DNA of 64,000 bases from a virus. Positions 10,341 to 42,747 of the stretch are shown piece by piece (the first letter of the stretch is position 1; every line of letters begins with the position of its first letter). The stretch lies in the IMG/VR virus record IMGVR_UViG_3300020182_002648, positions 82,810-146,809 of that record, one strand, 5' to 3'. A model generated the notes under the pieces. It worked only from the letters and a program-made list of their open reading frames with translations, had not been told where the DNA came from and searched no databases. The position numbers were made by a program, and so were the translations under genes.

Positions 10341-10354
10341 ATAGTTATTTATTA

Positions 10355-11059
10355 TCAGAACGCTGTATGCCTAGGTTTTTCTTCAGTATAATTACCGTAC
10401 GGGTGAAGCAACCGGTTCATTTTGAACTTATCCCTGGGGTAGTAATTCCACTTATCGTCCAATATGAACCAATGATCACGTAATATTATGTTCAGAAAAG
10501 GTTCATCCTTTTTATAGTGCTCATGGTGACTGTATTGCCTTATCAACCTCATGTAATCATCAGTTGTGTTGATATCGAGCCACGTATTAATATCAAAAAC
10601 CATCATACCAGCATTAAAAAACTTCCTGGACTCATCCCCATTAGCGTATAACTCTGTTAGATTGTAGTATTTCAATGATTCATGTACGGTTTTTAGTATA
10701 TAATGAGGCACAGCTCCTATAGGTTGTTGGTTAAGATCATGTCTCCATAGATCATATATACATCCAGTAGCAAACACATCACTATCTAGAAAGATCGCCC
10801 GGGTGATTGATTCATCTAACTTGCGGAGTATCTCTGGGATATACACCCGCTGGTGCATCAATGGTAGTTTGCTGATTTCATCTGATGGTTTAACGTACGT
10901 TATGTTATCATGAGAGATCATATCATCACTGGTTATTATATAGTAGTTGATATCACTCTTATCTTTCCTGTAGAACATGTTGATATAGTTGATTGATTTT
11001 AATGTGAGCTTATGGTATGTTGAACCGCTCACTAGATAGCAGATATTAACACTCATCAT
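10355..11059 (-). CDS. glycosyltransferase family 8
   Basis: IFLDSD, FFNAGMMV, DEPFLN, KWNY, KP motifs. Confidence 0.85.
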   Translation of the reverse strand: MMSVNICYLVSGSTYHKLTLKSINYINMFYRKDKSDINYYIITSDDMISHDNITYVKPSDEISKLPLMHQRVYIPEILRKLDESITRAIFLDSDVFATGCIYDLWRHDLNQQPIGAVPHYILKTVHESLKYYNLTELYANGDESRKFFNAGMMVFDINTWLDINTTDDYMRLIRQYSHHEHYKKDEPFLNIILRDHWFILDDKWNYYPRDKFKMNRLLHPYGNYTEEKPRHTAF

Positions 11060-11763
11060 ATCTTCAACTTAAATCTATAAGTATCGTCTTCAATCCATGA
11101 GCCTATATTCCAATGCATGCCAGCACCAGTGAGGGGTATGTTCATGTTTGATTCTTGTATTTTATATCTCTCTGTTTTTGAGAGAGACTCAAAACTTTGA
11201 TAGTCATGAGTAGTAGTGTTACAAATTGAACTGAACTTGTTATGACATACAGTCATATACCCACCGGCGGTGGTCATCATCACTTGATGATGTTTATCTG
11301 CCTCAGAGTCTCTACTATCAAGAGCGAATTGCAATCCTCTTATACAATAATTCATGAACTTGCTTCCTGGTACTGAGTAGAATATACTGTTAGTCAATAA
11401 TGGTTTATCATGAGGCCATCCTCCTAGACCATGCCCCGGGTGCTCTTCAAACAACACAACCTCGTCAGTAAGTAGGTGGCTAACATCTTTAAAACATTCG
11501 ATGTCTAAGTCACAATACAATCCACCATACTCATATAATATTAAGTATCTGCTCATGTCACTCCTAGATATATTACACTCATAACGCAAGTACAACCCCA
11601 TCAACTCCGGAAACTTCTCTTCTATCAATTTCTCTATAGATTCATCAGTCCAGAACACGTGGTTCCAATCACGGTGGTGCTCAATCCATGTTGCTCTCCA
11701 ATCAGCAAGCTTTGGTGGTATGTTATCATCTGACCACATCTGATGAATTGTCTTACAGGTCAT
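11056..11763 (-). CDS. glycosyltransferase family 32 (OCH1-like)
   Basis: KTIHQMW, RSDMSRYLILYEYGGLYCDLD. Confidence 0.9.
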   Translation of the reverse strand: MTCKTIHQMWSDDNIPPKLADWRATWIEHHRDWNHVFWTDESIEKLIEEKFPELMGLYLRYECNISRSDMSRYLILYEYGGLYCDLDIECFKDVSHLLTDEVVLFEEHPGHGLGGWPHDKPLLTNSIFYSVPGSKFMNYCIRGLQFALDSRDSEADKHHQVMMTTAGGYMTVCHNKFSSICNTTTHDYQSFESLSKTERYKIQESNMNIPLTGAGMHWNIGSWIEDDTYRFKLKI

Positions 11764-12274
11764 AAATATCCACCCGGTCCTTTCCATAGAATTTATTGAA
11801 ACCATGCTTCTCTAAAATACATTGATACACTGGATTGTCATCATTATACGGAAAGCAGAAACTGGTCGGTATCAGGTTGTGATCTCTAAAACGTCTCATC
11901 ATTAATTTTGTATCATTTACAGTATTAAACCCGGCATGCTTGATATGCATGTGACTGTGACCACCTATATAACACCTCGGAGTACTGGCTATCTCTTGTA
12001 TTTGTCTCCAGTTCATGTAGTGTGATAGGTCACCGGTTTCGAACAGCTTGTCATGTGCTTTGTGGCATTGTATAAATTCATCTGATTGTGATTGATCATC
12101 CGGAGCTACTATACCTGTACTGATGAAGAATATTTTATCGGTATCAATGCTATTAATCTTATCAAGATGTAAGTACTGTGTATATAGCCCATCATCGAAC
12201 GTCAATATATACTCATCTAGAGGAAGATCAAACATCCACTCCGCGACTTCATGTATCATCAATACAGGTTTCAT
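11753..12274 (-). CDS. polysaccharide deacetylase (NodB/CE4)
   Basis: LTFDDG, GGHSHMH, FCFPY. Confidence 0.85.
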   Translation of the reverse strand: MKPVLMIHEVAEWMFDLPLDEYILTFDDGLYTQYLHLDKINSIDTDKIFFISTGIVAPDDQSQSDEFIQCHKAHDKLFETGDLSHYMNWRQIQEIASTPRCYIGGHSHMHIKHAGFNTVNDTKLMMRRFRDHNLIPTSFCFPYNDDNPVYQCILEKHGFNKFYGKDRVDIYDL

Positions 12275-12918
12275 CTCTTGAACACTAACTTAAATCCCTC
12301 AGCGAGTTCGTACCCACACAAGCTTCCATGATACTGATCTCGAGCGGTTATCATCCGCAAGCTTACTGGATCAGGTGAGGGTCTGAGTTCCGTTGTATAT
12401 CTGCTTATCATCTTCATCTTGATGTTAGCATGCTGAGTTATATCCTCATATACATTGAGCTGTTTAGGCTCATGTCCCCATTCAGTGCTGCCAGGTATCG
12501 TGAACTCATATAATTCATTGACAGGACTAGACTCTCTCATCCGACAAGCGACTCGCGTTGCACTAGATATTATCTGATGATCCTTATGCACGTCACCATT
12601 GTAGTGTGTGTACACAACCGTCGGTTTAATTGACTGTATGTATTGATACATGATATTACACAACTCTGTTTGAGGTGTTTGATCTAGCCTGGTGTCTGAA
12701 TATCCATGAAATGATGTATCTATGATACCAACATCCTTGCAGTTAGCAAGGCATGCCTTCTTCCGAGGAGATCCAACCTTCTCATGACCCGGTCTATCCC
12801 CCTTGCAGAACACCATCAAGTGTACATCATTTTGCTCACATAACTTTGCAGTAGTACCGCCCATGCCTAACTCAAAATCATCTAAATGTGCTGTCAGTAA
12901 CAGTATTTTCTTTTTCAT
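12271..12918 (-). CDS. PIG-L/LmbE family N-acetylsugar deacetylase
   Basis: AHLDDFELGMGGT, DVHKDH, AEGF. Confidence 0.9.
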   Translation of the reverse strand: MKKKILLLTAHLDDFELGMGGTTAKLCEQNDVHLMVFCKGDRPGHEKVGSPRKKACLANCKDVGIIDTSFHGYSDTRLDQTPQTELCNIMYQYIQSIKPTVVYTHYNGDVHKDHQIISSATRVACRMRESSPVNELYEFTIPGSTEWGHEPKQLNVYEDITQHANIKMKMISRYTTELRPSPDPVSLRMITARDQYHGSLCGYELAEGFKLVFKR

Positions 12919-13835
12919 ATCATGCTCTTGATTATTGAGCGAACATCATGGATTGGTGTGAAGTATTGATTGATCTTATCAGTGTTCGGTTTGCGTTTGT
13001 ATATTTCACCGAACTGATCACTGAAGTCATCTGCATGCGGTCTGTATATAATTTTACTCTTGCTGCCTATGACATCTATCACAGTTTCTGCTAGTTGTGA
13101 TATGGTTAGTACATTACTTGTGTTACCAATATTGTATATTTCCCCTGCATGCTGATCCATTGACACAATGTCAAGCATACTAACAGCATCTCTGATGTCA
13201 CAGAAAGTCCGGTATTGTGTACCATCACCATAAACAATTATATCTTCATCTTGTTTGGCTAGCTCCACGAACGTTGGTAACACCATACCGTATTTACTCA
13301 GCTGCCCCTCGCCTGTGACGTTGAAGAACCTTGCGATAGTGTGAGGGAATGAGTATGTTTTGAGTAGAAATTCTGACATGAGTTTAGCACAAGCATATCC
13401 CCAACGTAGGGTGTCAGGTGAGCCAATCTTCAGCGTGTCTGTCTCTCTAGCCTCTTCTGTATTACCATAAACCTCACTTGTGCTAGCAAATACGACACGA
13501 TTGTTATACTTCTCGAATAGCGGAAACATGTTGTTGTTTATGTTGAATGAATTGCGTAATGTACCTTGAGGGTCTCTGTCTACATACTTGACACCAACTG
13601 AACCAGCCATGTGATAAACCAGATCAGCATCAGCGAGCTCTTTCTCGATCGTCAAGATGTCGTGCTGTGTACTTAGATCAACTGATAAGACAGTCCGGTT
13701 GGGGCCTTTGATAAACACTTGACCGGTACTAAAATTATCGATAATAGTTACATGATCTTGTTGCTCTACATAAAACTCAGCCAGATGAGAGCCTATGAAA
13801 CCTCCACCACCGGTGATTATTATTTTTTTATCCAT
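12915..13835 (-). CDS. NAD-dependent nucleotide-sugar epimerase/dehydratase
   Basis: TGGGGFIGSH, STSEVYG, YACAK, RFFNV. Confidence 0.9.
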   Translation of the reverse strand: MDKKIIITGGGGFIGSHLAEFYVEQQDHVTIIDNFSTGQVFIKGPNRTVLSVDLSTQHDILTIEKELADADLVYHMAGSVGVKYVDRDPQGTLRNSFNINNNMFPLFEKYNNRVVFASTSEVYGNTEEARETDTLKIGSPDTLRWGYACAKLMSEFLLKTYSFPHTIARFFNVTGEGQLSKYGMVLPTFVELAKQDEDIIVYGDGTQYRTFCDIRDAVSMLDIVSMDQHAGEIYNIGNTSNVLTISQLAETVIDVIGSKSKIIYRPHADDFSDQFGEIYKRKPNTDKINQYFTPIHDVRSIIKSMI

Positions 13836-14419
13836 TGTTTTATTTCTTGTATACTTTTCTTGTTGGTTACATCATACTCATGTGTAATGTTCGTGCTTGC
13901 TAATATCGGTTTAGTTTGATCGACAAACTCCTTCAATGTTATATATTCAATAACATTGTTCATGTCATCTGCCGGGATGATATTCTCTCGTATTTGTCTC
14001 ATTAGGCCTTTCTTTCTGCATTTACTATACACACGTGGTATACGCAGTATGATATAATTATTATATACACTCTTGATATAGTTTTCCATCAAAAGTTTAC
14101 AGTGACAATATATGTTATCAGGTTGTAATGCTCCAGCAGTACTAGCAAAGATAAATTTAGCATCATGCTTTTTTGTTAGCTCTATCATATTAATAGTACC
14201 GTTTACAATAACATCAACGACACGTGCAGCGTCCTTGAAATCATACACGTCTGACGGACCCGCGAAATGGTACATATTGTCAAAATTGCTTACATTGTCA
14301 CTAATGTTTAGTATGTCACCATAGTCCACGTTACTACCAATTACATGCTGCTTCAGAGCACCAGCGAGATACCCTCTCTGACCACCAGTGAATAGGTTAA
14401 CTGGTGGAATCCCACTCAC
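13820..14419 (-). CDS. short SDR epimerase/reductase
   Basis: TGGQRGYLA, FAST, YCHCK. Confidence 0.7.
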   Translation of the reverse strand: MSGIPPVNLFTGGQRGYLAGALKQHVIGSNVDYGDILNISDNVSNFDNMYHFAGPSDVYDFKDAARVVDVIVNGTINMIELTKKHDAKFIFASTAGALQPDNIYCHCKLLMENYIKSVYNNYIILRIPRVYSKCRKKGLMRQIRENIIPADDMNNVIEYITLKEFVDQTKPILASTNITHEYDVTNKKSIQEIKQWIKK

Positions 14420-14885
14420 AGTTGTCCCATCCTAACCTTATGAAATTGGTGTGATTGTTTCTTAGACAGGATGTCAGAGTCTTAACAAATCCAGATCGAT
14501 TTACCGGTTCATGACATTCAACACCCAATGCTTCCATTAATTTATAATCATCATCTGGTATATGACCGATACCACATCTATCATAACAGCCATTATGACC
14601 AGCGTTGATCAGAGTGACATTATTACCATAATTCACTACGCTAAACTTTAACTGTTCATACGCTCGTTGATACACGAACCCAGCCACACCATACACTATG
14701 ACTCTCTTACCAGATCTCGCCAATCCTCCTGCAACGTTCATCATATTTGTCTCTTGAATACCAAAATTTAAACATCTCTCCGGGAACTTTTTCTGAAACT
14801 TCTTAAATCCCCACATGTCAGCATGCATGAAGATAGTGTCCTGGTTGTTATATTTACTTAAAAATGTATCAAGTGTCGCTCTCAT
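14397..14885 (-). CDS. transketolase pyrimidine-binding subunit (no C-terminal domain)
   Basis: FPERCLNFGIQETNM, RAYEQ, GIGH. Confidence 0.85.
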   Translation of the reverse strand: MRATLDTFLSKYNNQDTIFMHADMWGFKKFQKKFPERCLNFGIQETNMMNVAGGLARSGKRVIVYGVAGFVYQRAYEQLKFSVVNYGNNVTLINAGHNGCYDRCGIGHIPDDDYKLMEALGVECHEPVNRSGFVKTLTSCLRNNHTNFIRLGWDNCEWDSTS

Positions 14886-15759
14886 TATAATTTTTCAGAT
14901 ATAGATTGAGTTCATGATTGTAGTCCTCAAATGTCATCTCTCTACCGGTTATTTTAAAATTAGATATACCTCTAGTCATTAATTGTTTGATCTGATTGGC
15001 CTTGAGGTCCATTCCATAACTATCTCCATACTTATTGATAGTAGGCCCGTGACCCTCATCCGGTTCGAAGCCAGAAGATTTGAGGTAATCAGATCTCTCA
15101 GATAACCAACATTCCTCTATTCTATACATCTCTTTCTCTCCCGCTTCTTCCCATGGCTTCTTATATGTTCTATTTTGTTTGGCTATCTCTTCAAAATGCT
15201 CACCATAGTAAGGACAGTTATAAAGACATGTGTCGTTCAACATTATCTCGTATTTGGATTGTGTTAATTTATCGAACTGGCTATCGAACACATGCTCACA
15301 TCTAGGTACTATATAATCGTATATTTCCTCTAGTCGAGTGTATAGTGAGATATCCTCCTCACTCATCGGGACTGTTATCTTCCCAAACCCAGTGATGGAC
15401 CGTGTATGCTTATACAATGGATATTTGTCCTTAACATAACTTACCAGATCTTCATTGACTGATATAATCACGTTACCCGCCCGGTGAAACTTCTCTAATA
15501 ACTCATTACCAATCTGGTCAGTCAGATCAACAACAGGGTTTGTGAACGTCAACGCTATAGTGATTTCATTCCGATAATAGAAGTCAATTGTGTCATCATC
15601 ATGAAACACATCGCGATTTATTCTACCACCATTCCATGGACAGTTATTAATACCATCATATACGGTAATATCTATATCCTTGAGCGTCGACTTGTTACGA
15701 AATATATACATCTTCAACTCAGTACTCTTACTGAACGCACCAGCTACATTAAACCTCAC
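14869..15759 (-). CDS. U32 peptidase-like Fe-S protein
   Basis: MLNDTCLYNCPY...EEC...FKITGRE pattern. Confidence 0.6.
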   Translation of the reverse strand: MRFNVAGAFSKSTELKMYIFRNKSTLKDIDITVYDGINNCPWNGGRINRDVFHDDDTIDFYYRNEITIALTFTNPVVDLTDQIGNELLEKFHRAGNVIISVNEDLVSYVKDKYPLYKHTRSITGFGKITVPMSEEDISLYTRLEEIYDYIVPRCEHVFDSQFDKLTQSKYEIMLNDTCLYNCPYYGEHFEEIAKQNRTYKKPWEEAGEKEMYRIEECWLSERSDYLKSSGFEPDEGHGPTINKYGDSYGMDLKANQIKQLMTRGISNFKITGREMTFEDYNHELNLYLKNYNESDT

Positions 15760-16543
15760 AATACATCTCCTCCATCGGTTTATAATGCCACTTGACTGGG
15801 TCCTTCTCCATATAAGGCACTCCGTGACCTTTTGTGGTCTTAAAAAAGAATATACGTGGACGGGGTTGATTACGTGAGAGTGGTGAATTGACTGAATGAT
15901 TCCAGTTATCTTTAATTTTATCTACGTCATGTCCCTCAACGTCATATGTAAGCCAGTCGTAACCTCTACACATGTCAATAATCGGATCGACAGTAAGTAC
16001 GTTATCAGTGAATCCGGTCACTTGCATATTATTATAATCTACAGTTACTAATACATTATAGATCCTATGGTGACCTATATATTGTAATGCTTCTAATGTA
16101 CTACCCATTTGTAGAGTTGCATCAGTTATATTGACCCATACTAGTTGTTGAGGATTCGCGAGAGCTATACCGGTTGCTACTCCTAAAGCATTTCCCATGG
16201 TCTCCTCACCGTAATCTACAAACTTGATCTCATCATGCTTCACACCAACAGACAGGTCTTCAATTTCCGTTAGATAGCCGAGATCTTTCCATAGAATATA
16301 GTAGGCTTGAGACCCAAATGGTTTACCTAAGACAATCCTATCACGGTATGGCTTGATATATTCATTTGTAAACAACACATCGATATATGTCAGCATTGAG
16401 AGAGCAGACGGTACGTGTGTTAGCTGGTGATCAAATGAATATTGAAGAATTCTATTACTGATAGAGCGCACTAATGTATTATAGTATATTTCTAATGTAA
16501 ATGCAACTACGGTCTTACTTTTTCTTGGGTATATAAAACTCAC
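15749..16543 (-). CDS. transketolase ThDP-binding N-terminal subunit (divergent)
   Basis: HVPSALS, MGNALGVATGIAL, DYNNMQ, VEGHD, TTKGHGVPYME..WH; start uncertain. Confidence 0.85.
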   Translation of the reverse strand: MSFIYPRKSKTVVAFTLEIYYNTLVRSISNRILQYSFDHQLTHVPSALSMLTYIDVLFTNEYIKPYRDRIVLGKPFGSQAYYILWKDLGYLTEIEDLSVGVKHDEIKFVDYGEETMGNALGVATGIALANPQQLVWVNITDATLQMGSTLEALQYIGHHRIYNVLVTVDYNNMQVTGFTDNVLTVDPIIDMCRGYDWLTYDVEGHDVDKIKDNWNHSVNSPLSRNQPRPRIFFFKTTKGHGVPYMEKDPVKWHYKPMEEMYCEV

Positions 16544-17462
16544 CTTTACAACAACTCCACTTACATTTGGTGTAGTTGTTGGCTCTGATCTTGAATAATG
16601 TCTTATTGTCCAGTATATTTCCGATAGGCTTCTCTAAAGTATTTGCACAACACATAAAATAATCTCCATTTCCGTTTATTATAATATACTCCTTACCGAC
16701 AGAGCAAGTCCATCCCTCGAATGAAATGCCCTCTCTGTACAGATCATTTGTATCATGAGTTTTAATTGTACCGTCTTGGTATGTTACTTCGTACTCTTCA
16801 TGGAACATGGCATGCTCATTAACAAAATCGCTATACATGTCAGTGGTGCTTCGATAGTCAATGTAGCTATGAATAAATTCTATCTTGTTCTTGTATGGTC
16901 GCGTCAACATCTGCTTACTGTTGTCTATGATGTCATTCTTACTCTCTTCATCATGCTCCAACATCACATCTACCTTGCCTAACATCCCTGCATTATCAAT
17001 CATATCAATTTTATCTATAAACTTCTTAAAGTCCTTGGTGTATTTATGATGATATGATACGTTTATATCTAACTTGTTGTCTTTATGATCGTCAATCAAT
17101 TCCTGTATATATCCATGGCCTACTGACAGGTTTGTTTGTAATTCAACAATAACAGATTTGTTCATGTTGAATATAAATTTGATCACATCTCTGCATTTAG
17201 GGTGTGTTGTAGGTTCTCCGCCATGGAAGTATATCCGGAAGTTTGTGTGATCTATGCAGTCAATCGCCGAGGTGATTGTATTTTCAATATCATCTATATT
17301 GTAGTGATGACCGTATTTCCAGTGACAATACTCGCAGTCATAATTACAGTAATCTGTTATACGTAATTGGAATTCATAGTAAGGTTCATCAAACTTATGT
17401 ACTCCTTGTTGAGTATTACCTCCTCGGTCGGCTTTTATATTATAATCTTTTGGTATAATCAT
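16515..17462 (-). CDS. radical SAM protein with twitch/SPASM domain
   Basis: CNYDCEYC, GGEPT, QTN, GWTC..C..CKWSCC. Confidence 0.9.
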   Translation of the reverse strand: MIIPKDYNIKADRGGNTQQGVHKFDEPYYEFQLRITDYCNYDCEYCHWKYGHHYNIDDIENTITSAIDCIDHTNFRIYFHGGEPTTHPKCRDVIKFIFNMNKSVIVELQTNLSVGHGYIQELIDDHKDNKLDINVSYHHKYTKDFKKFIDKIDMIDNAGMLGKVDVMLEHDEESKNDIIDNSKQMLTRPYKNKIEFIHSYIDYRSTTDMYSDFVNEHAMFHEEYEVTYQDGTIKTHDTNDLYREGISFEGWTCSVGKEYIIINGNGDYFMCCANTLEKPIGNILDNKTLFKIRANNYTKCKWSCCKGEFYIPKKK

Positions 17463-17472
17463 AACAATCCTC

Positions 17473-18219
17473 TCACATTAAAAAGCATTTATCGTGATTA
17501 CATATACCGGTATGGTTCTTCCGGTGACAACAGTTATATAGACTTAAATCAGGAGCGTACAGGAAGTACACGCCAGTATACAAGCAAGGCTTGCCTCTAG
17601 GAGAATGACCCTCCCATAGTTTAGATCGATCTGTTCCTAGTCTTTCAACTTCCTCAAAATTAATTACCTTTTGCCAAGCCGGAGATCGTTTCAATCGATT
17701 ATAATCCTTCAATGACTCACCAGACACACCATCACCAAAGTCTGCCACCGGTGTCAAGTATGTATTTTTAACATGTTCTTTAACTTTCATATAATACTCA
17801 ATCGCACCTCTGTTGGTGTACATGACGTCGACTATTCGTATGTCAAGATTTGTTGGTATGTTTATATCATCTAGAGCTATTTGCGTGGGATGTATTGATA
17901 CTTGTAATGTTACTGGTTCAGTTATCTTACTCAGAACCCTTTGGCTCTTGTTCGATAAATTTGTTTGTATGACGAATGGTATTTTATGTTTATTGAATGT
18001 ACGTATTATATACTCTATGTGCTGGTGTAGGAACGGCTCTCCACCGAATACAAATATTTCTACTCCTGGGTATGTCTCACCTAACATTATTATAAATTCC
18101 TCTAACCGTGTCTTATCTAGCACCGGTTTTATTGATGGATCGAGATTTGTACAGTACGTACAACTATAATTGCACAACATAGTGACCTCCCATTCCACCA
18201 TTGTTGGAATTTTATTCAT
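17473..18219 (-). CDS. radical SAM protein with twitch/SPASM domain
   Basis: CNYSCTYC, GGEP, QTN, Cys-rich C-terminus. Confidence 0.9.
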   Translation of the reverse strand: MNKIPTMVEWEVTMLCNYSCTYCTNLDPSIKPVLDKTRLEEFIIMLGETYPGVEIFVFGGEPFLHQHIEYIIRTFNKHKIPFVIQTNLSNKSQRVLSKITEPVTLQVSIHPTQIALDDINIPTNLDIRIVDVMYTNRGAIEYYMKVKEHVKNTYLTPVADFGDGVSGESLKDYNRLKRSPAWQKVINFEEVERLGTDRSKLWEGHSPRGKPCLYTGVYFLYAPDLSLYNCCHRKNHTGICNHDKCFLM

Positions 18220-18227
18220 TACACTTA

Positions 18228-19016: not shown

Positions 19017-19025
19017 ATATATTAT

Positions 19026-21722: not shown

Positions 21723-22356
21723 TATTAAGTTCAGGTACGCTTATGTTGTCCATCCCATCAGTAGTCTGTACCCATTTCTGTTCAGCTATATATTTAAAAC
21801 TACATCCAATCTCTGCTAACATTCCTAGCAAGTGGTAGTCATTTCTTATATTATTACCACGTGGTACTTGATCTATCAGGTTGTTCTTAAATATGATCTG
21901 ACCTAATTGAAAATACTCATCATCAAAGACGTTAAAGAACTCACTCAAGTTAGTGAGAGACTGATACTTGCGATTTTTCCGCATCATCTTATATGCACAA
22001 ACCGGGCCGTAATATTCAATTTCCGGTTCAGAAATATACTCGATATACAGTACATCAGAATCATATACTATGTTGTCAAAAAAATTACTTCTAATATAAT
22101 CATCATCTTCCAGAATATAGACATATTCCCCTCCGGATTGATCATATAACAGCTGATATATATCGGATATATCGATCGATGTTTGATAGTTATATCGAAT
22201 CTGTACCTGAGCGCTATGTATTTCGGTTATATCTTTACTGTCATTGTTAACTATGATTTCGATCGGATAATCTGGTAGATTATTGAGTATACTATTTATT
22301 GATCGTTTAAATAGTTCCGGGCGATTGTGTGTTGGTATTAATATCGATAACTTCAC
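21697..22356 (-). CDS. glycosyltransferase family 2
   Basis: LSILIPTHNR, EIIVNND, ILEDDD. Confidence 0.85.
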   Translation of the reverse strand: MKLSILIPTHNRPELFKRSINSILNNLPDYPIEIIVNNDSKDITEIHSAQVQIRYNYQTSIDISDIYQLLYDQSGGEYVYILEDDDYIRSNFFDNIVYDSDVLYIEYISEPEIEYYGPVCAYKMMRKNRKYQSLTNLSEFFNVFDDEYFQLGQIIFKNNLIDQVPRGNNIRNDYHLLGMLAEIGCSFKYIAEQKWVQTTDGMDNISVPELNNDTRFYEE

Positions 22357-23300
22357 GTTGCTTCTAGTATATTGATGATATCATCGCTCTCGGACAATCG
22401 AATACTATCAAAATCACTTTCGATATCCAGCATGCGATTCTTCAATCCAGTATCATGGTCAAGGTAATCATTGTCAATATTATGATAGATTACATCTCGG
22501 TCATAATGTTTACATTCTGCTGGGAGTCGAGGGCTACCATCAAACATCCCTCGTGTAGGTGTGTATATATAAGTGTTGAATCGACTGAACATATCTTGTA
22601 GAGGAGGTACAGTAAACTCAAACCGGTCATCTGGAATACTTCTGCATTGTTCTGTTATCACAACATATTTCTCAAACTCATAACTATCAGCCACCTGTAA
22701 CAAGTCAGTATCTGAGATTTGTCTGCAGTTGATAGTAGCGTATATCAACCCAGTTGATTCTGTACATGTGTCAACTTGCTTCAATATGTCGAAGTTTATT
22801 TTCTTCTTGTAATTTATACTCAACTTAGTATCCTCTGGATTGCACAGATCATACACTCGATCATCTTGCAAAATAGTCACATCATACGGTACATCATACA
22901 GTGTATCAAACCGCGAGCATTTGAAGGAATACACGCGATCAAAAATCAACTTCGTGCCTTGTCGCTTCAATCTGTGCAAATCACCATCTACAAATAGAAT
23001 ATTATTGCCTTTGATAAACCTCGGTAGATTTGTGAAGTAGGTAGAGTTCTTAATTGAATCTAACTGATCATCGCTCAAGCTATACTTACGTGTTATCACT
23101 AGTTTAAATTCATCCCAACATTTAAACGTGTCACCGAACAGTATACATACATTAAGCTTGGTTGATAGTATCACGAAGTAATCGATTATTTCGAAAACAT
23201 GACCTGATATTCGATGTGGTTGATCTGGGTACCAGGTCATCGATAAACATATATCATACTTCCGATCAAGTATGGTCATGTCACTCATCATACATCCCAT
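22353..23300 (-). CDS. putative GT-B glycosyltransferase
   Basis: C-terminal FDGSPRLPAEC resembles GT-B donor-binding motif. Confidence 0.45.
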   Translation of the reverse strand: MGCMMSDMTILDRKYDICLSMTWYPDQPHRISGHVFEIIDYFVILSTKLNVCILFGDTFKCWDEFKLVITRKYSLSDDQLDSIKNSTYFTNLPRFIKGNNILFVDGDLHRLKRQGTKLIFDRVYSFKCSRFDTLYDVPYDVTILQDDRVYDLCNPEDTKLSINYKKKINFDILKQVDTCTESTGLIYATINCRQISDTDLLQVADSYEFEKYVVITEQCRSIPDDRFEFTVPPLQDMFSRFNTYIYTPTRGMFDGSPRLPAECKHYDRDVIYHNIDNDYLDHDTGLKNRMLDIESDFDSIRLSESDDIINILEAT

Positions 23301-24312
23301 GACGATAATGATTCACGTCTGTGATCTTCTCACCTGGCTCAGGATTCGGCTTGCATGCGGTCACTTGCTTCTCGATACCATCACATATGTTATAATACTT
23401 ACAACTCATACACTCAACTGGCTTGACGTAATCCTCTTCACGTGGTTTACGCGCTGCATCATAAGCCATGTCTATCTTCTCTTCATGACTGTACTGTTTT
23501 GATACGTCAACACTGTAATCATAAATCTCTTTGTTCCAATCATATCTATCATAAATATGTTGATATTGATTGCATACATACTTCTCATATCCTTTCATGT
23601 AACAATAGGGTGTGTATCTAACGTTTATATATCGTACGTGATGCTTTATGTTATCGATACAAATTTTAATATTGTCCGTTACCTCCGTATAATCTATAGC
23701 ATCCGCAAACTTGTTATTTACCCAATAATTTAGAGTCAAGAAATTAACTTCTAATGGGTTTAACCTTTTGATAACCTCGTGATAACTCTTGAGACCTTCA
23801 CAATTTCTTTGATACACTGTACAGTTTACTCTCACTACCATGTCATGAGCATGAGCTAGTTCGATTGCCTGGTTAATCTTCTTCCAGGCACCCTTCCGGC
23901 GGACAATCTCATCATGGCTTTCCTCATCATATCCATGAACACTGAACATTATCTCTTTGAGTCCGCGCTCCTTGCTCTTCAATAAGAATTTCTCACGAGC
24001 AAATGCCCATCCATTACTCAATGTACTTATGTTACTGAATCTTGTATTACAGTAATCTAGTATATCAAACCATTGCTTATGCACGCTGCTCTCTCCGCCA
24101 GATAAATCAACCTCGTCAATACCGTATTTGTGGAGTATATCTATACGTCTCTTTATTTCATCAAAATCTGTCACTTGATCGAGCATGCCTTGGTAATAAC
24201 AAAACTCACAGTCATAATTACAGAACGTACCAGTGTCCAGCTTGGCACGGTTACATCTAGGAGTGGTATAATCTTTTCGTAGTAGTACGGTGCTGAACTT
24301 GTTGCAATTCAC
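23281..24312 (-). CDS. radical SAM protein with SPASM-like domain
   Basis: CNYDCEFC, SGGE, SNG, CMSCKYYNICDG; GTG start. Confidence 0.9.
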   Translation of the reverse strand: MNCNKFSTVLLRKDYTTPRCNRAKLDTGTFCNYDCEFCYYQGMLDQVTDFDEIKRRIDILHKYGIDEVDLSGGESSVHKQWFDILDYCNTRFSNISTLSNGWAFAREKFLLKSKERGLKEIMFSVHGYDEESHDEIVRRKGAWKKINQAIELAHAHDMVVRVNCTVYQRNCEGLKSYHEVIKRLNPLEVNFLTLNYWVNNKFADAIDYTEVTDNIKICIDNIKHHVRYINVRYTPYCYMKGYEKYVCNQYQHIYDRYDWNKEIYDYSVDVSKQYSHEEKIDMAYDAARKPREEDYVKPVECMSCKYYNICDGIEKQVTACKPNPEPGEKITDVNHYRHGMYDE

Positions 24313-24317
24313 ACTAT

Positions 24318-24346
24318 ATTATATACTACCTGACTACAATTTGCAA
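24318..24346 (-). promoter_or_regulatory. sigma70-type promoter TTGCAA-N17-TATAAT-N5-GTG for the radical SAM operon
   Basis: Read directly. Confidence 0.7.
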
Positions 24347-25465
24347 TCAGTCTTTCAATGATGTGATTCGATCTTCTATAACATCAATCCATGTACGATC
24401 AACCACCTTAATTTCACAGTCCGGGTTGTCATGGAGATCTATTTTTTGTTCATCGGTAAGTTCATCAGAGATTGTGAAGGTTTCACCTTGATATATATCA
24501 AGCAGCTCTTGCAATTGTTCCGGTTCGTTTACCTCACTGAGTATATTGATCAATTGTTGTAATTCAAAATTCATTTCAGATGGATCGATATCAATTTCCT
24601 CTTCCACGAACTCTGGTTCAAGTCCCTTGTTTAGTGTTTCATCCATCATGATGTCATCATCAACCAACTGTTTGATAGTGTCTCCGGATTCAATAATTGA
24701 TATCATCAATTCATTATTAGGCCCCGGTAACAGTAAACTGGGCCAAAATCTGAACAACTCCTGGAATGTATTGTATTGTGTTAGGTCAGTTTCCTGTGGT
24801 ATGTCTCTGAACATCTGCTTGATAGTGTCAATGTCTGCTAAATCGTCCTCACTTGTTTGCGCTTGCTTTGCTTCCTCTTCCAGTTGATCGAGCTCAACAA
24901 AGGCATCCTCGCGTTTGGTTCTGATCAGGTTCATGTATTCCTCCCTCATGCAGTGCAGGTCATCATCACACGCACAAGCTAAATCATGTATGTTATCAAA
25001 CTTCAAATTCATTGATTTGAGCGTGTACCACACATCAAATGTTTCCGGGTCTTGTACATTGGTTCTAGTGTGAAGTATCACATCTTCTACATGCTGATTA
25101 TCACACTTGACATGCTTAGAATCACAACAGCATTGTATTTCATCCTTCATCTTCTGTATGGTTTCCAATGTTCGGTCATGGTCGTAACCACCGTCATCAT
25201 CCACGAACACTGACATTATGCCAACATTATCAACCGCATGCACCACGAATTTTTCTGCAAATATATCCCACATCACGATTTGACTCGTGTCAACATCAGG
25301 TATGTCAGTGGTATCGATCGCTTCACAGCAGTAACAATCCTCATGATGAGGCCACATTGTGTAAAATCTATTGGAACCGAAATTGTCTTGATCGTCTTGA
25401 TATATCTCCAAGCGTATCACACTGTCAAGCATTGCTTGTTTAATTTTTTCTATTAGTATCGACAT
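24347..25465 (-). CDS. acidic Cys-rich protein with tail-fibre assembly chaperone-like domain
   Basis: IRTKREDAFVELD...KQMFRDIPQ...WP pattern; follows fibre genes. Confidence 0.55.
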   Translation of the reverse strand: MSILIEKIKQAMLDSVIRLEIYQDDQDNFGSNRFYTMWPHHEDCYCCEAIDTTDIPDVDTSQIVMWDIFAEKFVVHAVDNVGIMSVFVDDDGGYDHDRTLETIQKMKDEIQCCCDSKHVKCDNQHVEDVILHTRTNVQDPETFDVWYTLKSMNLKFDNIHDLACACDDDLHCMREEYMNLIRTKREDAFVELDQLEEEAKQAQTSEDDLADIDTIKQMFRDIPQETDLTQYNTFQELFRFWPSLLLPGPNNELMISIIESGDTIKQLVDDDIMMDETLNKGLEPEFVEEEIDIDPSEMNFELQQLINILSEVNEPEQLQELLDIYQGETFTISDELTDEQKIDLHDNPDCEIKVVDRTWIDVIEDRITSLKD

Positions 25466-25467
25466 GA

Positions 25468-27015
25468 TTAAAAGAGTTTGAAGTGATTAGCACTCGGTGC
25501 TACCCCGACATGTGTTTTACCGGTGTATATGTCATATCCGACTTTTTGAATCCAATGCGTGTATTTCGGTGCAGCACCGGTGCCCCAGTTGGTCCAGTTC
25601 AATTGTTCACCCCACGTGGGGGTTGACATCATTGGATCACCCCATACGTGTCCGGATGATACCCTGTTGCCTTTATCAGTACATACCATTATTCCATTGC
25701 TATAATTTCCACTCTGTCTAGATGTCCATGTCAGCTTGTCCCTGTCTGGTCCGAACGCGGTATCAGTATTTGATTTCCCAATAGCCACAACTTGCTCAGG
25801 CTTGCTTGTGTTCCATATTGCAGCCGCAACCGCGCATGGATTTCTACCTTGAAATTGGTGTGGTACATTTCCATTTTTGACCTCAACTTCGATCTTCTGA
25901 TATCGGTTCGCGCCAGCTGGTAATGTAAAAGTGTGACTCGGTGGCATGTTAGATGAGTGCGAGGCTCCAGTGAATGAAAGTCCAAGCGTGGGTAAACTTA
26001 CCTTCGACGCATCATCTCCACCGACCTTGATAGCCCACGTGTTGGGTTGACCAACACCGAAATCAACCATATCAACATATGTGTATGTTCCTGGTAATGG
26101 ATTCCTTGATTTACCGAAAGCGTCAGTCGCGTTCATGGCATATGACCATGATCCTTGACCCATGTCACCAAAACCAATACCAGTATATTTTGTAAAAGGC
26201 AACATTGGAAATGAACCATTAAATTCAAGCCATTTCCCCCAACCGGCGAGAACTCCACCGTACGGTACGTTCCATGACTGGTAATAAATCGTACCGTACC
26301 AATCGGAGCTGGCAATTCCTATCATGACAGCTTTGTTTGTTGTTCTGATTGTAACTCCTGAACTAGCCGTCCATTCCAACTTGACTGGGTGATGAGATTT
26401 GTTGAATGCATGATCATTGGCCTGCCGGAATAACCAGCTTGAAGTACGGGAGTGAACTCTTTTGGTCGCTCCTAAAAGGAATGATGCAGTCCCGCCGGCG
26501 GAGGTAGTTTTGGCGATCGAATCACATGTGACCTTGACGATATCACCAGTTCCGTGACCTAAAAACCGTTGAGAGTATGCTCCATTCTTCGCATCAGCAT
26601 AACCACCCACAGCCGCGCGTGGTTTCACTCTCTCGTAATATTGCAAACATGTATGATCGCGAAAATCACTGAACTTTACTGGGTTTTTACCTCCATCAAA
26701 TGTTTGATGTAATGCACCTACTGATCCTAAAGTGCCTTGGTTTGTTATCTGTGATTTGTGATAGTTGTCTATGTTAGTTCCTTGAGGTATAGGAAACATC
26801 CTTCTGGCGTACCAGCTCCACATCTCACTCAAGGATGCTTTGTTGTTCCATGATCCTCCTACTTTGGCAGTCTCATCACTACTAGTGAATCCACCGTGCA
26901 CGTAATTTCTTTTATGGTCAGCATACACCCTAGTGGCTGCATTCATGTCACTCATACCAATTGCACCAGTGGCAGGTGTTTGTACTGTTGCTTTTACGTT
27001 ACTTGTTCTAGGCAT
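25468..27015 (-). CDS. putative tail-fibre adhesin / receptor-binding protein
   Basis: GAIGMSDM...VKFSDF motifs, Gly/Trp-rich; immediately follows S74 fibre. Confidence 0.55.
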   Translation of the reverse strand: MPRTSNVKATVQTPATGAIGMSDMNAATRVYADHKRNYVHGGFTSSDETAKVGGSWNNKASLSEMWSWYARRMFPIPQGTNIDNYHKSQITNQGTLGSVGALHQTFDGGKNPVKFSDFRDHTCLQYYERVKPRAAVGGYADAKNGAYSQRFLGHGTGDIVKVTCDSIAKTTSAGGTASFLLGATKRVHSRTSSWLFRQANDHAFNKSHHPVKLEWTASSGVTIRTTNKAVMIGIASSDWYGTIYYQSWNVPYGGVLAGWGKWLEFNGSFPMLPFTKYTGIGFGDMGQGSWSYAMNATDAFGKSRNPLPGTYTYVDMVDFGVGQPNTWAIKVGGDDASKVSLPTLGLSFTGASHSSNMPPSHTFTLPAGANRYQKIEVEVKNGNVPHQFQGRNPCAVAAAIWNTSKPEQVVAIGKSNTDTAFGPDRDKLTWTSRQSGNYSNGIMVCTDKGNRVSSGHVWGDPMMSTPTWGEQLNWTNWGTGAAPKYTHWIQKVGYDIYTGKTHVGVAPSANHFKLF

Positions 27016-27019
27016 GAGA

Positions 27020-29827
27020 TTATTTAAGTCGAGATTCTAGTTCTTCCACTTTCGCGGTTAGTTCTTTTATCGATTCGATTAACAGAGGCACTAGTTTTTC
27101 ATACTTGACTGCCTTGTAACCATCATCACGAGCTGCAACAACCTCTGGCATGACCTGCTCGACCTCTTGTGCTACAACTCCTACATCATGGCCAGAGTAT
27201 GTATTCTGCTTGTCATTCCAGTCAAATTCATATCCGTTTAACCTCGAGACTTTCTCTAGTGGACTGGATATAAGTGTTAAGTTGTCCTTCAATCGTTCAT
27301 CTGACGATGCGAATGCAATAATATCACCTTGACATTCTATCGTACCGGCACAGCTGATATCACTACAGGTAAGTCTCGAAGCAGTTATAATTTGTTTGAG
27401 AACATATATCGAGTCATCGACTCTAACATGACCTGTGAAGGTACCTCCTGTAACATCCACAAAATTACCTTTTGGAATTGACGCATTGTTGCTCAAGTCT
27501 AAATTATCACCATTTCCATGAAAACTAGTAGCATGGCATTGGGAGTTGATTGAGACACCTTCGCTAGTGGTCATGATTCTCCAAGTGTTGTTGTGATATA
27601 ACTTTGAATCTGAATTGCCGGCGAATCTTGCAGATGTTTCAGAACCGCTACCAATTGTTACAACCCCAGCTGCGTTATCCGTCTTGACTTGGAGATGTGT
27701 ACCGGTGTTGATTAACATATTACCGCTAGCTGTTTGCTGAATGTATGATCGCTGAGTAGTTCCTTCCGAAAAAGCGACTTTTGCTTTGTTATTGAATGAA
27801 GTGGTCATACTTGCTCCAGTTGTGGCGGAACTTGCATTGCTTTTCAGAAACGATGCATTACCAATAGCAGTCTGCAAGTCATTTAGTTGAGTTTGAACTC
27901 CTGAGAATCGATTACCTACTTCATGTCTATTGTAGTAATTGGCCTTGAGATCATACACATGTGTGGCTTTAATTGTACCATAATCATTAAAATCAAATCC
28001 GGTTACAACTTGAGCATGGTAAGTCGCACTGTTCTCCACAACACCGGATGTCAGTGAAGGTGTGGACGCTGATCTACCTGTCATCAGATTGTAATCATTA
28101 GGTGCAGTGACTGATCCACCGGACCTGCTAGGTTTAGTACCTACATGCTCTAGAGAGAGAAAACTATCAGATGGTGAGTTGGTCGTAATATTGGTCACGT
28201 GACCGGCTCGATTAAATTGAATACTCTCGACTAACGTACCACCACCGCCAACAGTCGCTAACGTTTGACCGCTAGTAGCATGAGCAGTGAAAAGCGTCTG
28301 TGCGTGGGATTTGTGATTGATCTTGATCTTGTTCCCTGTGATGTTTTGGGTGCTTATGTTAACCTCACTAGAACTACCAGCACCATTACTAGCACTGTCT
28401 CCGACAAATGATATCGCGGAGTGGTTTGTGGTGGGATTGAAATTACCTGTGTTAGTGGATACATTGTACCACTTGTTAAAGAACTCAGTTTGTGTAGTAG
28501 CAGCATCAACAAATGCTGCAGTAGGTACCATACGATTTGCGAAGGATATAACACCGGTCGTTGCATTGGATGTAATATCGATCCAACTAGCAGAATCAAA
28601 ACTAGTGGATTTAGCGCCGGTGCTTGAACCAGTTATCAATTGACCGGCACCAAGAACCAAACTTCTGAACGGACCATCACTGTCTGTCTCATGAGAAGCT
28701 AACACTCCTCCAGCGGCGTATGAACTGTTACCAGTACCACCACTACTCACTGACATAGGATCACCTGGTGTACCATCTGCGTTCTGAATGTTGATACCAG
28801 CGAAAGTCGGAGAGGCTCCTGTGTCAGTGCTTTGATTGATTAGATAGCCATTCCATCCACCGATATCAGTTGCTCCTTCACCGTACACAATCAAACCGGT
28901 CTCAAACACTAGATCAGCATTACCAGAGTATTGACTCGGTCTAGCACTTTTCAGCACCAGAGGCTTACAAGCATTGAGCCCAGAGCCAACTGATATACCT
29001 CCACCGGTCCAACCGCTAGTTGTTTGGGAGTTTCTGTCTAATCTTGTCAATAGATCTGTCTCACCATTGGTCCAGTCGTTTTCATATACAGGTGGTTGTA
29101 TCTCAATAGTACTCCATCCTGTATCATCACCAGTATGTCCGACGGATATATGACCGGCACTCAGATAATTTCTATGAGATAGATACAATCCAGTCTTTTC
29201 TGATGTTCCTCCAACTCCCGGTGCTGTTATATTACCATTAGTTACATTGACGTTAAGATCAAGTGTCTTGTCTTCGTATACAGTTGTATCAGCTTCCGCA
29301 AAAATAAGTTTAGCTGCCTCAAAGGTAGTTGAATCGGTGCTAAATCGTACTGAACCTAATCCAGTATCATCTACATCTACATACAATGCATTACCTATAT
29401 TGATTGTACCTCCGTTGGTTCTATTAATATAAAATTCAGACTCTGCAGAGCCATTGTAAAAGATTGCCGGTTCTGTTTGGCTTATGGTGCTGAACTGTAG
29501 AGGGTAGTCAGTGTTGATAGTCCGGTCTGTGCCATGAACTGATCTGTTGTACTCACCATCACCAACGAGAGAGGCACTCAACCCATGAACATTGATATCT
29601 AATTTCTGCGGCCCGGCACCCTGTTGTCCGCTAGCATCAGTGTAATGTAAGTGTTGATCGGCTCCACTCAAGGCCGGATAACCACCAGGAGTAACACCGT
29701 CACCAATCCATAATCGTTTAGTATCTAATGCCCAGCCTGGTTCCCCACTCGCTAAGATTGTCTTTTCTCTGTCAGAATTATTCCCTCTACGGAATAACAT
29801 TTTAGTAATTGTAGTTGTTGTTGCCAT
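27020..29827 (-). CDS. tail fibre with Mtd-like N-terminus and C-terminal S74 intramolecular chaperone
   Basis: RRG...LASGEPGWALDTKRLWIGDG; SSDERLK...GVVAQEVE...YEKLVPLLIESIKEL. Confidence 0.9.
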   Translation of the reverse strand: MATTTTITKMLFRRGNNSDREKTILASGEPGWALDTKRLWIGDGVTPGGYPALSGADQHLHYTDASGQQGAGPQKLDINVHGLSASLVGDGEYNRSVHGTDRTINTDYPLQFSTISQTEPAIFYNGSAESEFYINRTNGGTINIGNALYVDVDDTGLGSVRFSTDSTTFEAAKLIFAEADTTVYEDKTLDLNVNVTNGNITAPGVGGTSEKTGLYLSHRNYLSAGHISVGHTGDDTGWSTIEIQPPVYENDWTNGETDLLTRLDRNSQTTSGWTGGGISVGSGLNACKPLVLKSARPSQYSGNADLVFETGLIVYGEGATDIGGWNGYLINQSTDTGASPTFAGINIQNADGTPGDPMSVSSGGTGNSSYAAGGVLASHETDSDGPFRSLVLGAGQLITGSSTGAKSTSFDSASWIDITSNATTGVISFANRMVPTAAFVDAATTQTEFFNKWYNVSTNTGNFNPTTNHSAISFVGDSASNGAGSSSEVNISTQNITGNKIKINHKSHAQTLFTAHATSGQTLATVGGGGTLVESIQFNRAGHVTNITTNSPSDSFLSLEHVGTKPSRSGGSVTAPNDYNLMTGRSASTPSLTSGVVENSATYHAQVVTGFDFNDYGTIKATHVYDLKANYYNRHEVGNRFSGVQTQLNDLQTAIGNASFLKSNASSATTGASMTTSFNNKAKVAFSEGTTQRSYIQQTASGNMLINTGTHLQVKTDNAAGVVTIGSGSETSARFAGNSDSKLYHNNTWRIMTTSEGVSINSQCHATSFHGNGDNLDLSNNASIPKGNFVDVTGGTFTGHVRVDDSIYVLKQIITASRLTCSDISCAGTIECQGDIIAFASSDERLKDNLTLISSPLEKVSRLNGYEFDWNDKQNTYSGHDVGVVAQEVEQVMPEVVAARDDGYKAVKYEKLVPLLIESIKELTAKVEELESRLK

Positions 29828-33156: not shown

Positions 33157-33187
33157 AAGTATTCAGGGGTATCTCATAAGTAGTTAT

Positions 33188-33976: not shown

Positions 33977-33978
33977 TT

Positions 33979-34077
33979 ATGATAAAAATTACAAAACTTA
34001 AACAAAAGCAACCAGTGTATGATATCACTGTAAAAGATAATCACAATTTCTTCGGAAATAATATACTAGTACACAAC
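33979..34077 (+). mobile_element. split intein C-half (33 aa)
   Basis: Blocks F/G, terminal HN followed by +1 Cys. Confidence 0.92.
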
Positions 34078-40843: not shown

Positions 40844-40853
40844 TTTATAAATT

Positions 40854-41980: not shown

Positions 41981-41981
41981 A

Positions 41982-42701: not shown

Positions 42702-42747
42702 TTTTGTTTTTTTTTCGTTCCCTAAGAAAGTATACTTTTTTATTTTG

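Follow-up and report, generated by a model that had tools for sequence, protein, structure and literature searches.

A run of radical SAM and sugar-enzyme genes behind a tail fibre

We analysed a 64,000-nucleotide stretch of viral DNA (the window; bases 82810–146809 of the 146.8-kb IMG/VR contig IMGVR_UViG_3300020182_002648), which carries a cassette of genes for radical S-adenosylmethionine enzymes (rSAMs) and sugar-building enzymes directly behind a tail-fibre gene. The record is estimated to be ~65% complete. The major capsid protein encoded on the contig is of the gp23 type, with only ~34% identity to cyanomyophage gp23, and a PHROG search detects a ribonucleotide reductase and several tail-fibre proteins. 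We therefore place the phage among uncultured, distant T4-like myoviruses. At the nucleotide level, the region has no match among deposited phages, and tblastn gives none for the baseplate-hub-like protein. The large subunit of the ribonucleotide reductase (31516–35205) consists of two open reading frames (ORFs) of 546 and 423 residues, both matching phrog_84, with a 262-residue ORF between them.

The cassette belongs to a run of 21 co-directional ORFs on the minus strand (10355–29827; all genes described below lie on this strand), which extends from the fibre gene (27020–29827) down to a GT8 glycosyltransferase gene (10355–11059). The run encodes the S74 fibre, two fibre-associated proteins, five rSAMs, four glycosyltransferases, a split transketolase-like enzyme arranged around a triosephosphate isomerase (TIM) barrel protein, two short-chain dehydrogenases/reductases (SDRs), and two deacetylases. 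Its ORFs are joined by overlaps of 4–53 nt or gaps of 2–34 nt, with overlaps prevailing. The initial annotation, made from the sequence, had described an unbroken, mostly overlap-coupled run with this gene order; the ORF coordinates bear out the description, and profile searches back most of its gene labels. The cassette (10000–24000) has a lower GC content (0.355–0.385) than the fibre genes and the flanks (0.40–0.43), and GC is low (0.33) in one further block, at 40000–44000, which lies in another minus-strand enzyme run. In none of the 21 proteins does hydrophobicity over 19 residues reach the level usual for a membrane helix (Kyte–Doolittle maximum 1.67), and no flippase, polymerase, initiating or lipid-carrier transferase, or ligase is found among the 21 genes.

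The five rSAMs are rSAM1 (23281–24312, 343 residues), rSAM2 (20778–21722, 314 residues), rSAM3 (19835–20785, 316 residues), rSAM4 or R4 (17473–18219, 248 residues), and rSAM5 (16515–17462, 315 residues). Four of them score 32–66 bits on the Radical_SAM profile PF04055, above the gathering cut-off of 29.5 bits, with rSAM1 at 66 bits; rSAM5 scores 25.9–26.5 bits, below the cut-off. As had been noted initially, each of the five contains a CxxxCxxC motif near the N-terminus and a Cys-rich C-terminus. We computed the conservation of the C-terminal Cys residues over 75, 8, and 13 homologues for the rS family, rSAM4, and rSAM1, respectively. rSAM1 is the best conserved gene of the cassette (phrog_27238, E 5e-85); it carries the motifs CNYDCEFC and GGE, and its residues C237, C301, C304, and C310 are invariant across the 13 homologues. 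rSAM2, rSAM3, and rSAM5 belong to the large paralogous rS family (75 members), in which four C-terminal Cys are kept in 99–100% of the members (C255, C272, C297, and C302 of rSAM3). In rSAM4, five C-terminal Cys are invariant, and the orthologues in the sister group of loci described below are 55–58% identical.

This Cys pattern fits one auxiliary cluster of the twitch type, as predicted from the sequences, and not the two clusters of SPASM proteins. Pfam detects no SPASM domain (PF13186) in any of the five rSAMs, which also lack the 7-Cys C-terminal pattern, while the domain is detected in the extra rSAMs of relatives. Of the earlier 'SPASM/twitch' assignment, the twitch part is retained as a prediction. 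The NCBIfam matches are a mixture of MoaA, viperin, AlbA, HxsC, STM4011, and PapB families, every one far under its curated cut-off: 15–36 bits against 170 on N_Twi_rSAM (NF033640), 21.9–28.9 against 340 on PapB, 60.8 at best against 850 on AlbA, and 31–55 against 180 on viperin (NF038283), the last over the N-terminal core alone. The best match of rSAM5, to the STM4011 family, is likewise below cut-off, and none of the five reaches the curated cut-off of the PapB/ranthipeptide, sactipeptide, and SCIFF peptide-maturase families (NF047865, NF012164, and TIGR03974). The solved structures nearest to rSAM1 are SkfB and viperins. Therefore, the chemistry of the five enzymes is not readable from family membership.

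Four genes encode glycosyltransferases or a glycosyltransferase-like protein. p315 (22353–23300), which adjoins rSAM1 in 24 of 24 loci, has no sequence-family match, and its assignment is structural. The top-ranked Foldseek matches of its structure model (predicted local distance difference test score 90.8) are all GT-B-fold enzymes, almost all of them glycosyltransferases, and comparison with the Atlas gives template modelling (TM) scores of 0.63–0.70 to Glycos_transf_1 clusters. The predicted structure thus upholds the earlier GT-B-like label. The other three score above their Pfam gathering cut-offs: a small, soluble GT2 enzyme of 219 residues (21697–22356; PF00535, 32.9 bits against 23.3), whose gene occurs in 19 loci, a GT32-type enzyme with a DXD sugar-binding region (11056–11805; PF04488, 62.7 against 23), and the GT8 enzyme (PF01501, 85.3 against 24.3).

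The Transketolase_N and Transket_pyr domains are located on separate ORFs, both scoring above the Pfam cut-offs. The closest solved chain to the thiamine diphosphate (ThDP)-binding (PP) subunit (15749–16543) is the N component of a split-chain transketolase (E 4.5e-16). In place of the expected ThDP/Mg motif GDG-x(25-30)-NN, the subunit has TDA-x28-YNN, in which the Asp and Asn metal ligands are retained and two glycines are lost; the C-terminal domain is absent. The Pyr subunit (14397–14885, 162 residues; PF02779, 27.7 bits) is also without a C-terminal domain. Of the two SDRs, the short one (13820–14419, 199 residues; Pfam Epimerase) has the motifs TGGxxGxxxG and YxxxK without the substrate-binding C-terminal domain, and the extended one (12915–13835, 306 residues; Pfam, 141 bits) is closest, in a PDB search, to UDP-glucuronate decarboxylases and nucleotide-sugar epimerases/dehydratases. 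The PIG-L/LmbE family N-deacetylase (12271–12918) scores 75.6 bits against a cut-off of 28.2, and its closest solved chain is BshB, an N-acetylglucosamine (GlcNAc)-malate deacetylase. Pfam thus confirms the labels GT2, GT32, GT8, transketolase N and Pyr, SDR (twice), and PIG-L. The CE4 label fares less evenly. The 173-residue protein in question (11753–12274) scores 11.6 bits (E 0.28) on PF01522, below the cut-off of 23.1; the one match in its favour is to phrog_26430, 'polysaccharide deacetylase' (E 1.8e-22), and its homologue in Campylobacter phage CP220 is annotated as a polysaccharide deacetylase. We therefore refer to it as CE4-like.

The remaining cassette proteins are less readily assigned. 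p296 (14869–15759), encoded between the two transketolase subunits, folds as a TIM barrel in which C40, C178, and C182 are invariant, and it has a FKITGRE motif in its C-terminal part. The initial label was U32-like. The profile PF01136 of the U32 family, to which O2-independent hydroxylases belong, gives 12.5 bits (E 0.092) over 25 residues, below the cut-off of 22.4, and the U32 protein Mk0906 (Z 11.4) is tied with unrelated barrels at 11.6. An assignment to U32 by fold was rejected, as Foldseek and VIA-align gave generic TIM-barrel ties only. The barrel is thus retained, and p296 is possibly U32-related, U32 being one of several tied folds. p270 (19026–19838) had been labelled fucosyltransferase-like; profile searches give no family match and three homologues, all unannotated, and the gene is absent from related cassettes. 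p262 (18228–19016) has no family match in profile searches and almost no homologues, with a weak one in locus L035 only.

The cassette is preceded by the fibre and two further genes. The 935-residue fibre, which matches tail-fibre PHROGs, ends in a Peptidase_S74 domain, an intramolecular chaperone (residues 842–897), whose junction motif reads IIAFAS before and SDERLKDN after the boundary, and residues 12–46 match Mtd_N, the N-terminal domain of the major tropism determinant (E 2.7e-6). p515 (25468–27015) has no Pfam or PHROG match. Its N-terminal ~100 residues are homologous to proteins (families f11 and f54) that precede the cassette in all close relatives, and its C-terminus is variable. 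p372 (24347–25465; phrog_20196, E 3e-6) is acidic, contains clusters of Cys, Asp, and Glu, and is conserved in its C-terminal region; it is a homologue of the f12 and f55 proteins, which are always encoded immediately upstream of rSAM1 in close relatives. The initial labels of these two proteins, adhesin-like and chaperone-like, are positional and without family support. We considered p372 as a conserved Cys-rich substrate of rSAM1, which is attractive in the window and in loci L006 and L035. However, the members of the family contain 1–20 Cys, one of them a single Cys, and the Cys clusters do not align. Because the Cys and acidic clusters are not conserved in the family, the idea of p372 as a general substrate fails, and we dropped it. 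A regular-expression search of all six frames of the 146.8 kb finds no Cys-heptad protein, no other Cys-repeat protein, and no S74 mini-fibre; the 935-residue fibre alone has an S74 junction.

Two promoter-like motifs had been proposed in the run. The largest intergenic gap (34 nt), located before rSAM1, contains the sigma70-like hexamer pair TTGCAA-17-TATAAT (24346–24318), which matches 10 of 12 consensus bases. The site described at 24318–24346 is thus present. However, sites of this kind are no commoner than in shuffles (92, compared with 78 ± 9), which makes it a candidate only. The internal late-type motif at 19023–19030, AATAAATA, matches the T4 late consensus at 7 of 8 bases; the run contains no exact TATAAATA, and the window has no excess of it, which leaves the proposed late motif unsupported.

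Related loci in phages and Bdellovibrionota

A scan of IMG/VR seeded with rSAM1 returned 18 loci. We group the related loci into 13 close loci with 60–76% rSAM1 identity, including two mis-binned contigs labelled as metagenome-assembled genomes (MAGs), and 7 sister loci with 47–57% identity. About 20 IMG/VR contigs show synteny across the cassette, from rSAM1 to GT32. The layout kept in close relatives is rSAM1, GT-B, GT2, rSAMs, transketolase N, p296 (not in all), transketolase Pyr, SDR, PIG-L, CE4, and GT32; in our map of gene families, this set, which we refer to as module 2, recurs with its order almost unchanged. p515-like and p372-like genes precede rSAM1 in all 13 close loci, as indicated by profile–profile comparison with hhalign (probability 96% for f11–f54 and 99% for f12–f55) and by shared N-terminal motifs, and an S74 fibre gene lies directly upstream of the pair in 6 of the 13. 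The initial annotation had named synteny with fibre genes in relatives as a check on its proposal, and these counts, together with the position of the sister core near S74 mini-fibres (see below), provide it. At L007:4462–6459 and in homologues in L008–L013, a 665-residue protein with a cytidylyltransferase-like segment (phrog_395/3041) is encoded in place of the S74 fibre. A scan seeded with the transketolase Pyr subunit for cassettes without rSAM1 reached four close relatives only, too few to assess modular independence.

In the seven sister loci, several extra genes come before module 2: a UDP-glucose-dehydrogenase-like gene, three more rSAM genes, genes for small helpers, and one to four mini-fibre genes. 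The mini-fibres are proteins of 190–260 residues in which an invariant (CTCNCNY)4–6 repeat abuts Peptidase_S74, and they are encoded 2–3 genes from the core. The extra rSAMs match the ranthipeptide-maturase model PapB over its full length at up to 125.7 bits, below the equivalog cut-off, and match the SCIFF, CcpM, and QhpD models as well. A scan of IMG/VR for the heptad-repeat DNA pattern, made without any enzyme query, returned 33 contigs, 26 of them beyond the seven sister loci. Helper and PapB-like rSAM genes lie beside the repeat in ~31 of the 33, and the genes for GT-B, rSAM1, GT2, R4, and the U32-like protein are present wherever the fetched stretch extends that far. In the 26 further contigs, too, the core is separated by 2–3 genes from small S74-type or Cys-repeat proteins. 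Mini-fibre genes are found in L017–L023 (e.g. L019:6858–7508) and L116–L148, with up to four tandem paralogues; in L020 and L022, an ORF stops straight after the heptad repeat, without the S74 part. In L018, L019, L021, and L022 (e.g. L019:19344–20615), a homologue of flavin-dependent tryptophan halogenases (Pfam E 1.4e-64) is encoded between the transketolase-like subunits, the position held by p296 in the window.

More distant homologues are found in cultured phages. All Firehammervirus Campylobacter phages encode an rSAM1 homologue with 45–46% identity, along with homologues of the GT-B protein p315 (31%), the transketolase Pyr subunit (36%), an SDR (31%), PIG-L (28%), and the CE4-like protein (38%). 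In CP220, the homologues of rSAM1, SDR, PIG-L, and the CE4-like protein sit among the genes for thymidine kinase, ThyX, and NrdB. CP220 gp140 (record positions 160932–162536; L115:5433–7037), encoded among tail genes, is a 534-residue protein with (CTCDCNY)x7 followed by six CxC[ND]x[ND]-type motifs. In CP220-type phages, Timms et al. 2010 (PMC2853527) recorded a 21-bp repeat and 11–12 rSAM genes, both unexplained. The heptad repeat of gp140 explains the 21-bp repeat, the sole intragenic one that they reported. The gene beside gp140 is probably the transketolase Pyr homologue, placed by its offset from CJLB-13 and not by CP220 alignment.

The GT-B–rSAM1 pair also occurs in four chromosomal loci of Bdellovibrionota, from Halobacteriovorax, Peredibacter, and a Bdellovibrionales MAG, at 46–48% identity and together with six to eight additional rSAMs. 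These clusters (L036–L039) contain 7–10 radical SAM genes with genes for GT-B, a DegT aminotransferase, SDR, PIG-L, and CE4 enzymes; the Peredibacter cluster lies on a complete chromosome and is flanked by cytochrome genes. The clusters adjoin genes for small Cys-rich proteins with CxCxxx repeats, placed 2–3 genes from the core, which start with M(A/S)CSG(A/S)HCN; those of Peredibacter run up to the S74 junction motif SDKRLKKEI. The Peredibacter S74 domain is seemingly split over two ORFs (L037:6822–7421 and 7415–7696). Near rSAM1 relatives outside Bdellovibrionota (DPANN archaea, Nitrospirota, and others; ≤38% identity), no other cassette gene is found. We also compared the gene pairs that lie between the S74 protein and the core in the three contexts (f11/f12, f8/f20, and f8/f46). 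Because hhalign found no homology across contexts, the architecture that they share is positional only.

Possible product and acceptor of the cassette

Our preferred reading, which we hold tentatively, is that the cassette may decorate the host-recognition apparatus after translation, acting on a protein of the fibre region. As judged from their sequences, the genes at 10355–24312 would form a mobile, cytoplasmic operon for building and tailoring a sugar. The UXS/ArnA-like (extended) SDR, the short SDR, and the split ThDP enzyme with its TIM-barrel partner would remodel a nucleotide sugar. The four soluble glycosyltransferases (GT-B, GT2, GT32, and GT8) would transfer sugars, the PIG-L and CE4-like enzymes would strip N-acetyl groups after transfer, and the five twitch-type rSAMs would carry out oxygen-independent tailoring, such as epimerisation, dehydration, oxidation, or formation of C–C or C–S bonds. 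PIG-L/LmbE enzymes usually deacetylate GlcNAc once it is attached to an acceptor, and an order of transfer, deacetylation, tailoring, and extension would fit this behaviour; this order, like the identity of the sugar, the acceptor, and the biological role, is our inference. The likeliest acceptor would be a phage-made protein encoded just upstream, i.e. the S74 fibre, p515, or p372.

Two observations point to such an acceptor. First, the run encodes neither a membrane protein nor a flippase, polymerase, or lipid-carrier transferase, so its four glycosyltransferases most simply act on a cytoplasmic acceptor. Second, the core recurs beside fibre-type proteins in phages and in predatory bacteria at ~50% divergence, and this is the best evidence that the target is a protein of that kind. 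The adjacency to fibre-region genes in both groups, as seen at the level of gene order, supports decoration of a fibre protein, though it does not prove it. Since the window contains module 2 only, without PapB-like rSAMs or a Cys-repeat protein, we read it as the sugar-building and tailoring half of a larger system. The wider proposal is that the rSAM1/GT-B core with its accessories might represent an undescribed maturation system for fibres that recognise hosts or prey, common to T4-like phages (marine and Campylobacter) and the predatory Bdellovibrionota, which would use radical-tailored sugars of cytoplasmic origin to decorate covalently, and in some lineages cross-link, the tips of trimeric S74-type fibres or their partners, this phage having the sugar-only version, directed at its long fibre or at p515 and p372. 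We regard this wider proposal as possible but doubtful.

Several points weigh against decoration of a fibre-region protein. Both product and acceptor are inferred from gene context, and the chemistry of the five rSAMs is undefined by family, all of them falling far below every curated NCBIfam cut-off. In 7 of the 13 close loci, the gene before the p515-like and p372-like pair encodes the cytidylyltransferase-containing protein, and no fibre. The homologues in Campylobacter phages are scattered over ~35 kb amid replication and nucleotide-metabolism genes. Neither the Cys-heptad mini-fibre nor PapB-like rSAMs occur in the window, so relatives, and not this phage, supply the strongest clue to the substrate. 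Moreover, the synteny among close relatives is inherited by descent, so these loci are not independent observations, and fibre regions of T4-like phages are hypervariable cargo islands (PMC7029224), so the adjacency may be partly positional. The initial proposal of a pathway that decorates the fibres or the virion thus keeps its basis in an operon that combines sugar-nucleotide enzymes, glycosyltransferases, deacetylases, and radical enzymes with a conserved fibre linkage, and is weakened by the seven relatives in which the upstream gene is not a fibre gene.

The most probable alternative, although we consider it unlikely, is remodelling of the host envelope: an unusual sugar or glycan would be fed to the host lipopolysaccharide (LPS) or capsule, masking receptors and excluding rival phages. 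This is how the literature views the glycosyltransferases of fibre-region islands in pelagimyophages and cyanomyophages (PMC7029224). Zaragoza-Solas 2020 (PMC7029224) described a host recognition cluster with fibres, LPS-type glycosyltransferases (GT8 being the commonest), and rSAM cassettes, and proposed O-chain modification. The GT8, GT32, UXS/ArnA-like SDR, and CE4 enzymes of the run resemble toolkits of the LPS or 4-amino-4-deoxy-L-arabinose (Ara4N) type, and the lower GC content of the cassette relative to its flanks is what swapped cargo would look like. However, an envelope pathway is at odds with the lack, among the 21 genes, of any membrane protein, lipid-carrier transferase, flippase, polymerase, or ligase, and a role in O-antigen modification leaves unexplained why the core lies beside S74 and Cys-repeat proteins in phages and Bdellovibrionota alike.

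Next in probability, and rather improbable, is a free small molecule, i.e. a soluble sugar-derived metabolite (resembling an aminoglycoside or a pseudo-oligosaccharide, or a modified nucleotide sugar) that would act on the host or on competitors. By analogy, the combination of a glycosyltransferase, PIG-L, a twitch rSAM, and an SDR recalls the logic of 2-deoxystreptamine, an aminoglycoside pathway that uses BtrM, BtrD, and BtrN. BtrN-type twitch rSAMs have a compact core and one auxiliary 4Fe–4S cluster, and are encoded in operons with a glycosyltransferase and a PIG-L deacetylase. The likeness is architectural only, as no BtrN model or structure is among the matches of the five rSAMs. Relatives add further hints of such a metabolite: the tryptophan-halogenase homologue in sister cassettes, the DegT aminotransferase in the bacterial loci, and a module of five rSAMs with an amidinotransferase in CP220 and CPt10. 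In addition, similar genes have been labelled 'antibiotic synthesis' in a cyanophage paper. But the run has no cyclitol synthase, exporter, or resistance gene, four glycosyltransferases of different families better suit a glycan built on an acceptor, and the conserved linkage to fibre-type proteins is left unexplained.

Slightly less probable still is radical cross-linking, in which the five rSAMs would act on side chains of p372, p515, or the fibre, forming thioether or C–C bonds as in ranthipeptides, SkfB, or CrpC/CrpA, and the glycosyltransferases would serve a separate purpose. Consistent with this, the solved structure closest to rSAM1 is that of SkfB, a thioether synthase with a twitch domain, the best NCBIfam matches of rSAM1 include AlbA and HxsC, p372 and its homologues in L006 and L035 carry their Cys/Asp/Glu clusters directly upstream of rSAM1, and the PapB-like rSAMs of the sister loci adjoin Cys-heptad proteins. 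rSAM-catalysed thioether formation on a 29-kDa protein has been demonstrated for CrpC/CrpA (PMC13692751). Against it, members of the p372 family do not share the Cys clusters, and the rSAMs of the window reach 22–29 bits on the PapB model and have one auxiliary-cluster Cys set, not two; PapB-like enzymes and Cys-repeat substrates are exactly what this phage is without.

Hypermodification of phage DNA bases with sugars, as a protection against restriction, is very improbable: although the CP220 homologues lie among nucleotide-metabolism genes, CP220 DNA is fully modified with 7-amido-7-deazaguanine, and U32-family enzymes hydroxylate pyrimidine C5 in RNA, the 146.8 kb of this record contains no thymidylate-synthase-like hydroxymethylase, TGT/DpdA, or QueC (PF00303, PF01702, and PF06508), an absence that falls short of proof at ~65% completeness, none of the five rSAMs reaches the model cut-off of QueE, to our knowledge the only rSAM in 7-deazaguanine synthesis, and the cellular cassette adjoins Cys-rich S74 proteins, not DNA enzymes.

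Relation to described systems and implications

Decoration of a virion protein by neighbouring genes has a parallel in mycobacteriophages, in which phage glycosyltransferases encoded beside structural genes modify capsid or tail proteins of the same phage within the cytoplasm; those systems are not known to include radical SAM, ThDP, or deacetylase tailoring enzymes. The CrpC/CrpA pair of Methanococcus voltae (PMC13692751), a case of ranthionine formation at protein scale, sets a precedent for an rSAM, related to QhpD and PapB, that modifies a whole Cys-rich protein encoded next to it. The sister cassettes, with PapB/QhpD-like rSAMs beside Cys-heptad mini-fibres, are alike in this respect. The window differs, as PapB-like enzymes, SPASM enzymes, and Cys-repeat proteins are all missing from it, and its rSAMs have a single auxiliary-cluster Cys set.

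The Firehammervirus phages CP220, CPt10, CP21, and IBB_35 (PMC2853527) are T4-like as well, with a set of rSAMs and direct homologues of cassette genes, but in these phages the genes are scattered and do not form one operon behind a fibre gene, and they carry the (CTCDCNY)n protein gp140, which the window lacks. Timms et al. 2010 (PMC2853527) proposed that the rSAMs of CP220-type phages confer a metabolic benefit at low oxygen. The host recognition cluster of pelagimyophages and cyanomyophages (PMC7029224), defined by its position between the VrlC and gp14 genes of a pelagimyophage genome, is a hypervariable island among the structural genes of marine T4-like phages. However, its description is at the level of annotation and is read as modification of the host O-chain, and the capsid protein of the phage studied here shares only ~34% identity with gp23 of cyanomyophages. 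The initial claim that the system is undescribed has to be tempered: rSAM cassettes in T4-like fibre islands and in CP220-type phages are already on record (PMC7029224, PMC2853527), although no function is given to them there. Our literature search found no paper that ties phage rSAM cassettes to protein-scale thioether formation by rSAMs, no paper on the CTCNCNY repeat, and nothing relevant on the combination of rSAM, tail fibre, and thioether or of Bdellovibrio, rSAM, and fibre. What the window itself adds is a clean variant with module 2 only, placed behind a long S74 fibre.

The five rSAMs lie outside every curated family and are therefore candidates for new oxygen-independent sugar or protein chemistry. 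If fibre-region proteins are indeed decorated, the cassette would offer a testable answer to the question, raised in 2010, of why Campylobacter group II phages hold a dozen radical SAM genes; these phages and the Halobacteriovorax and Peredibacter isolates are all culturable. Host recognition by such phages would then hinge on post-translational chemistry, which would be invisible to sequence-based prediction of host range and to the engineering of receptor-binding proteins.

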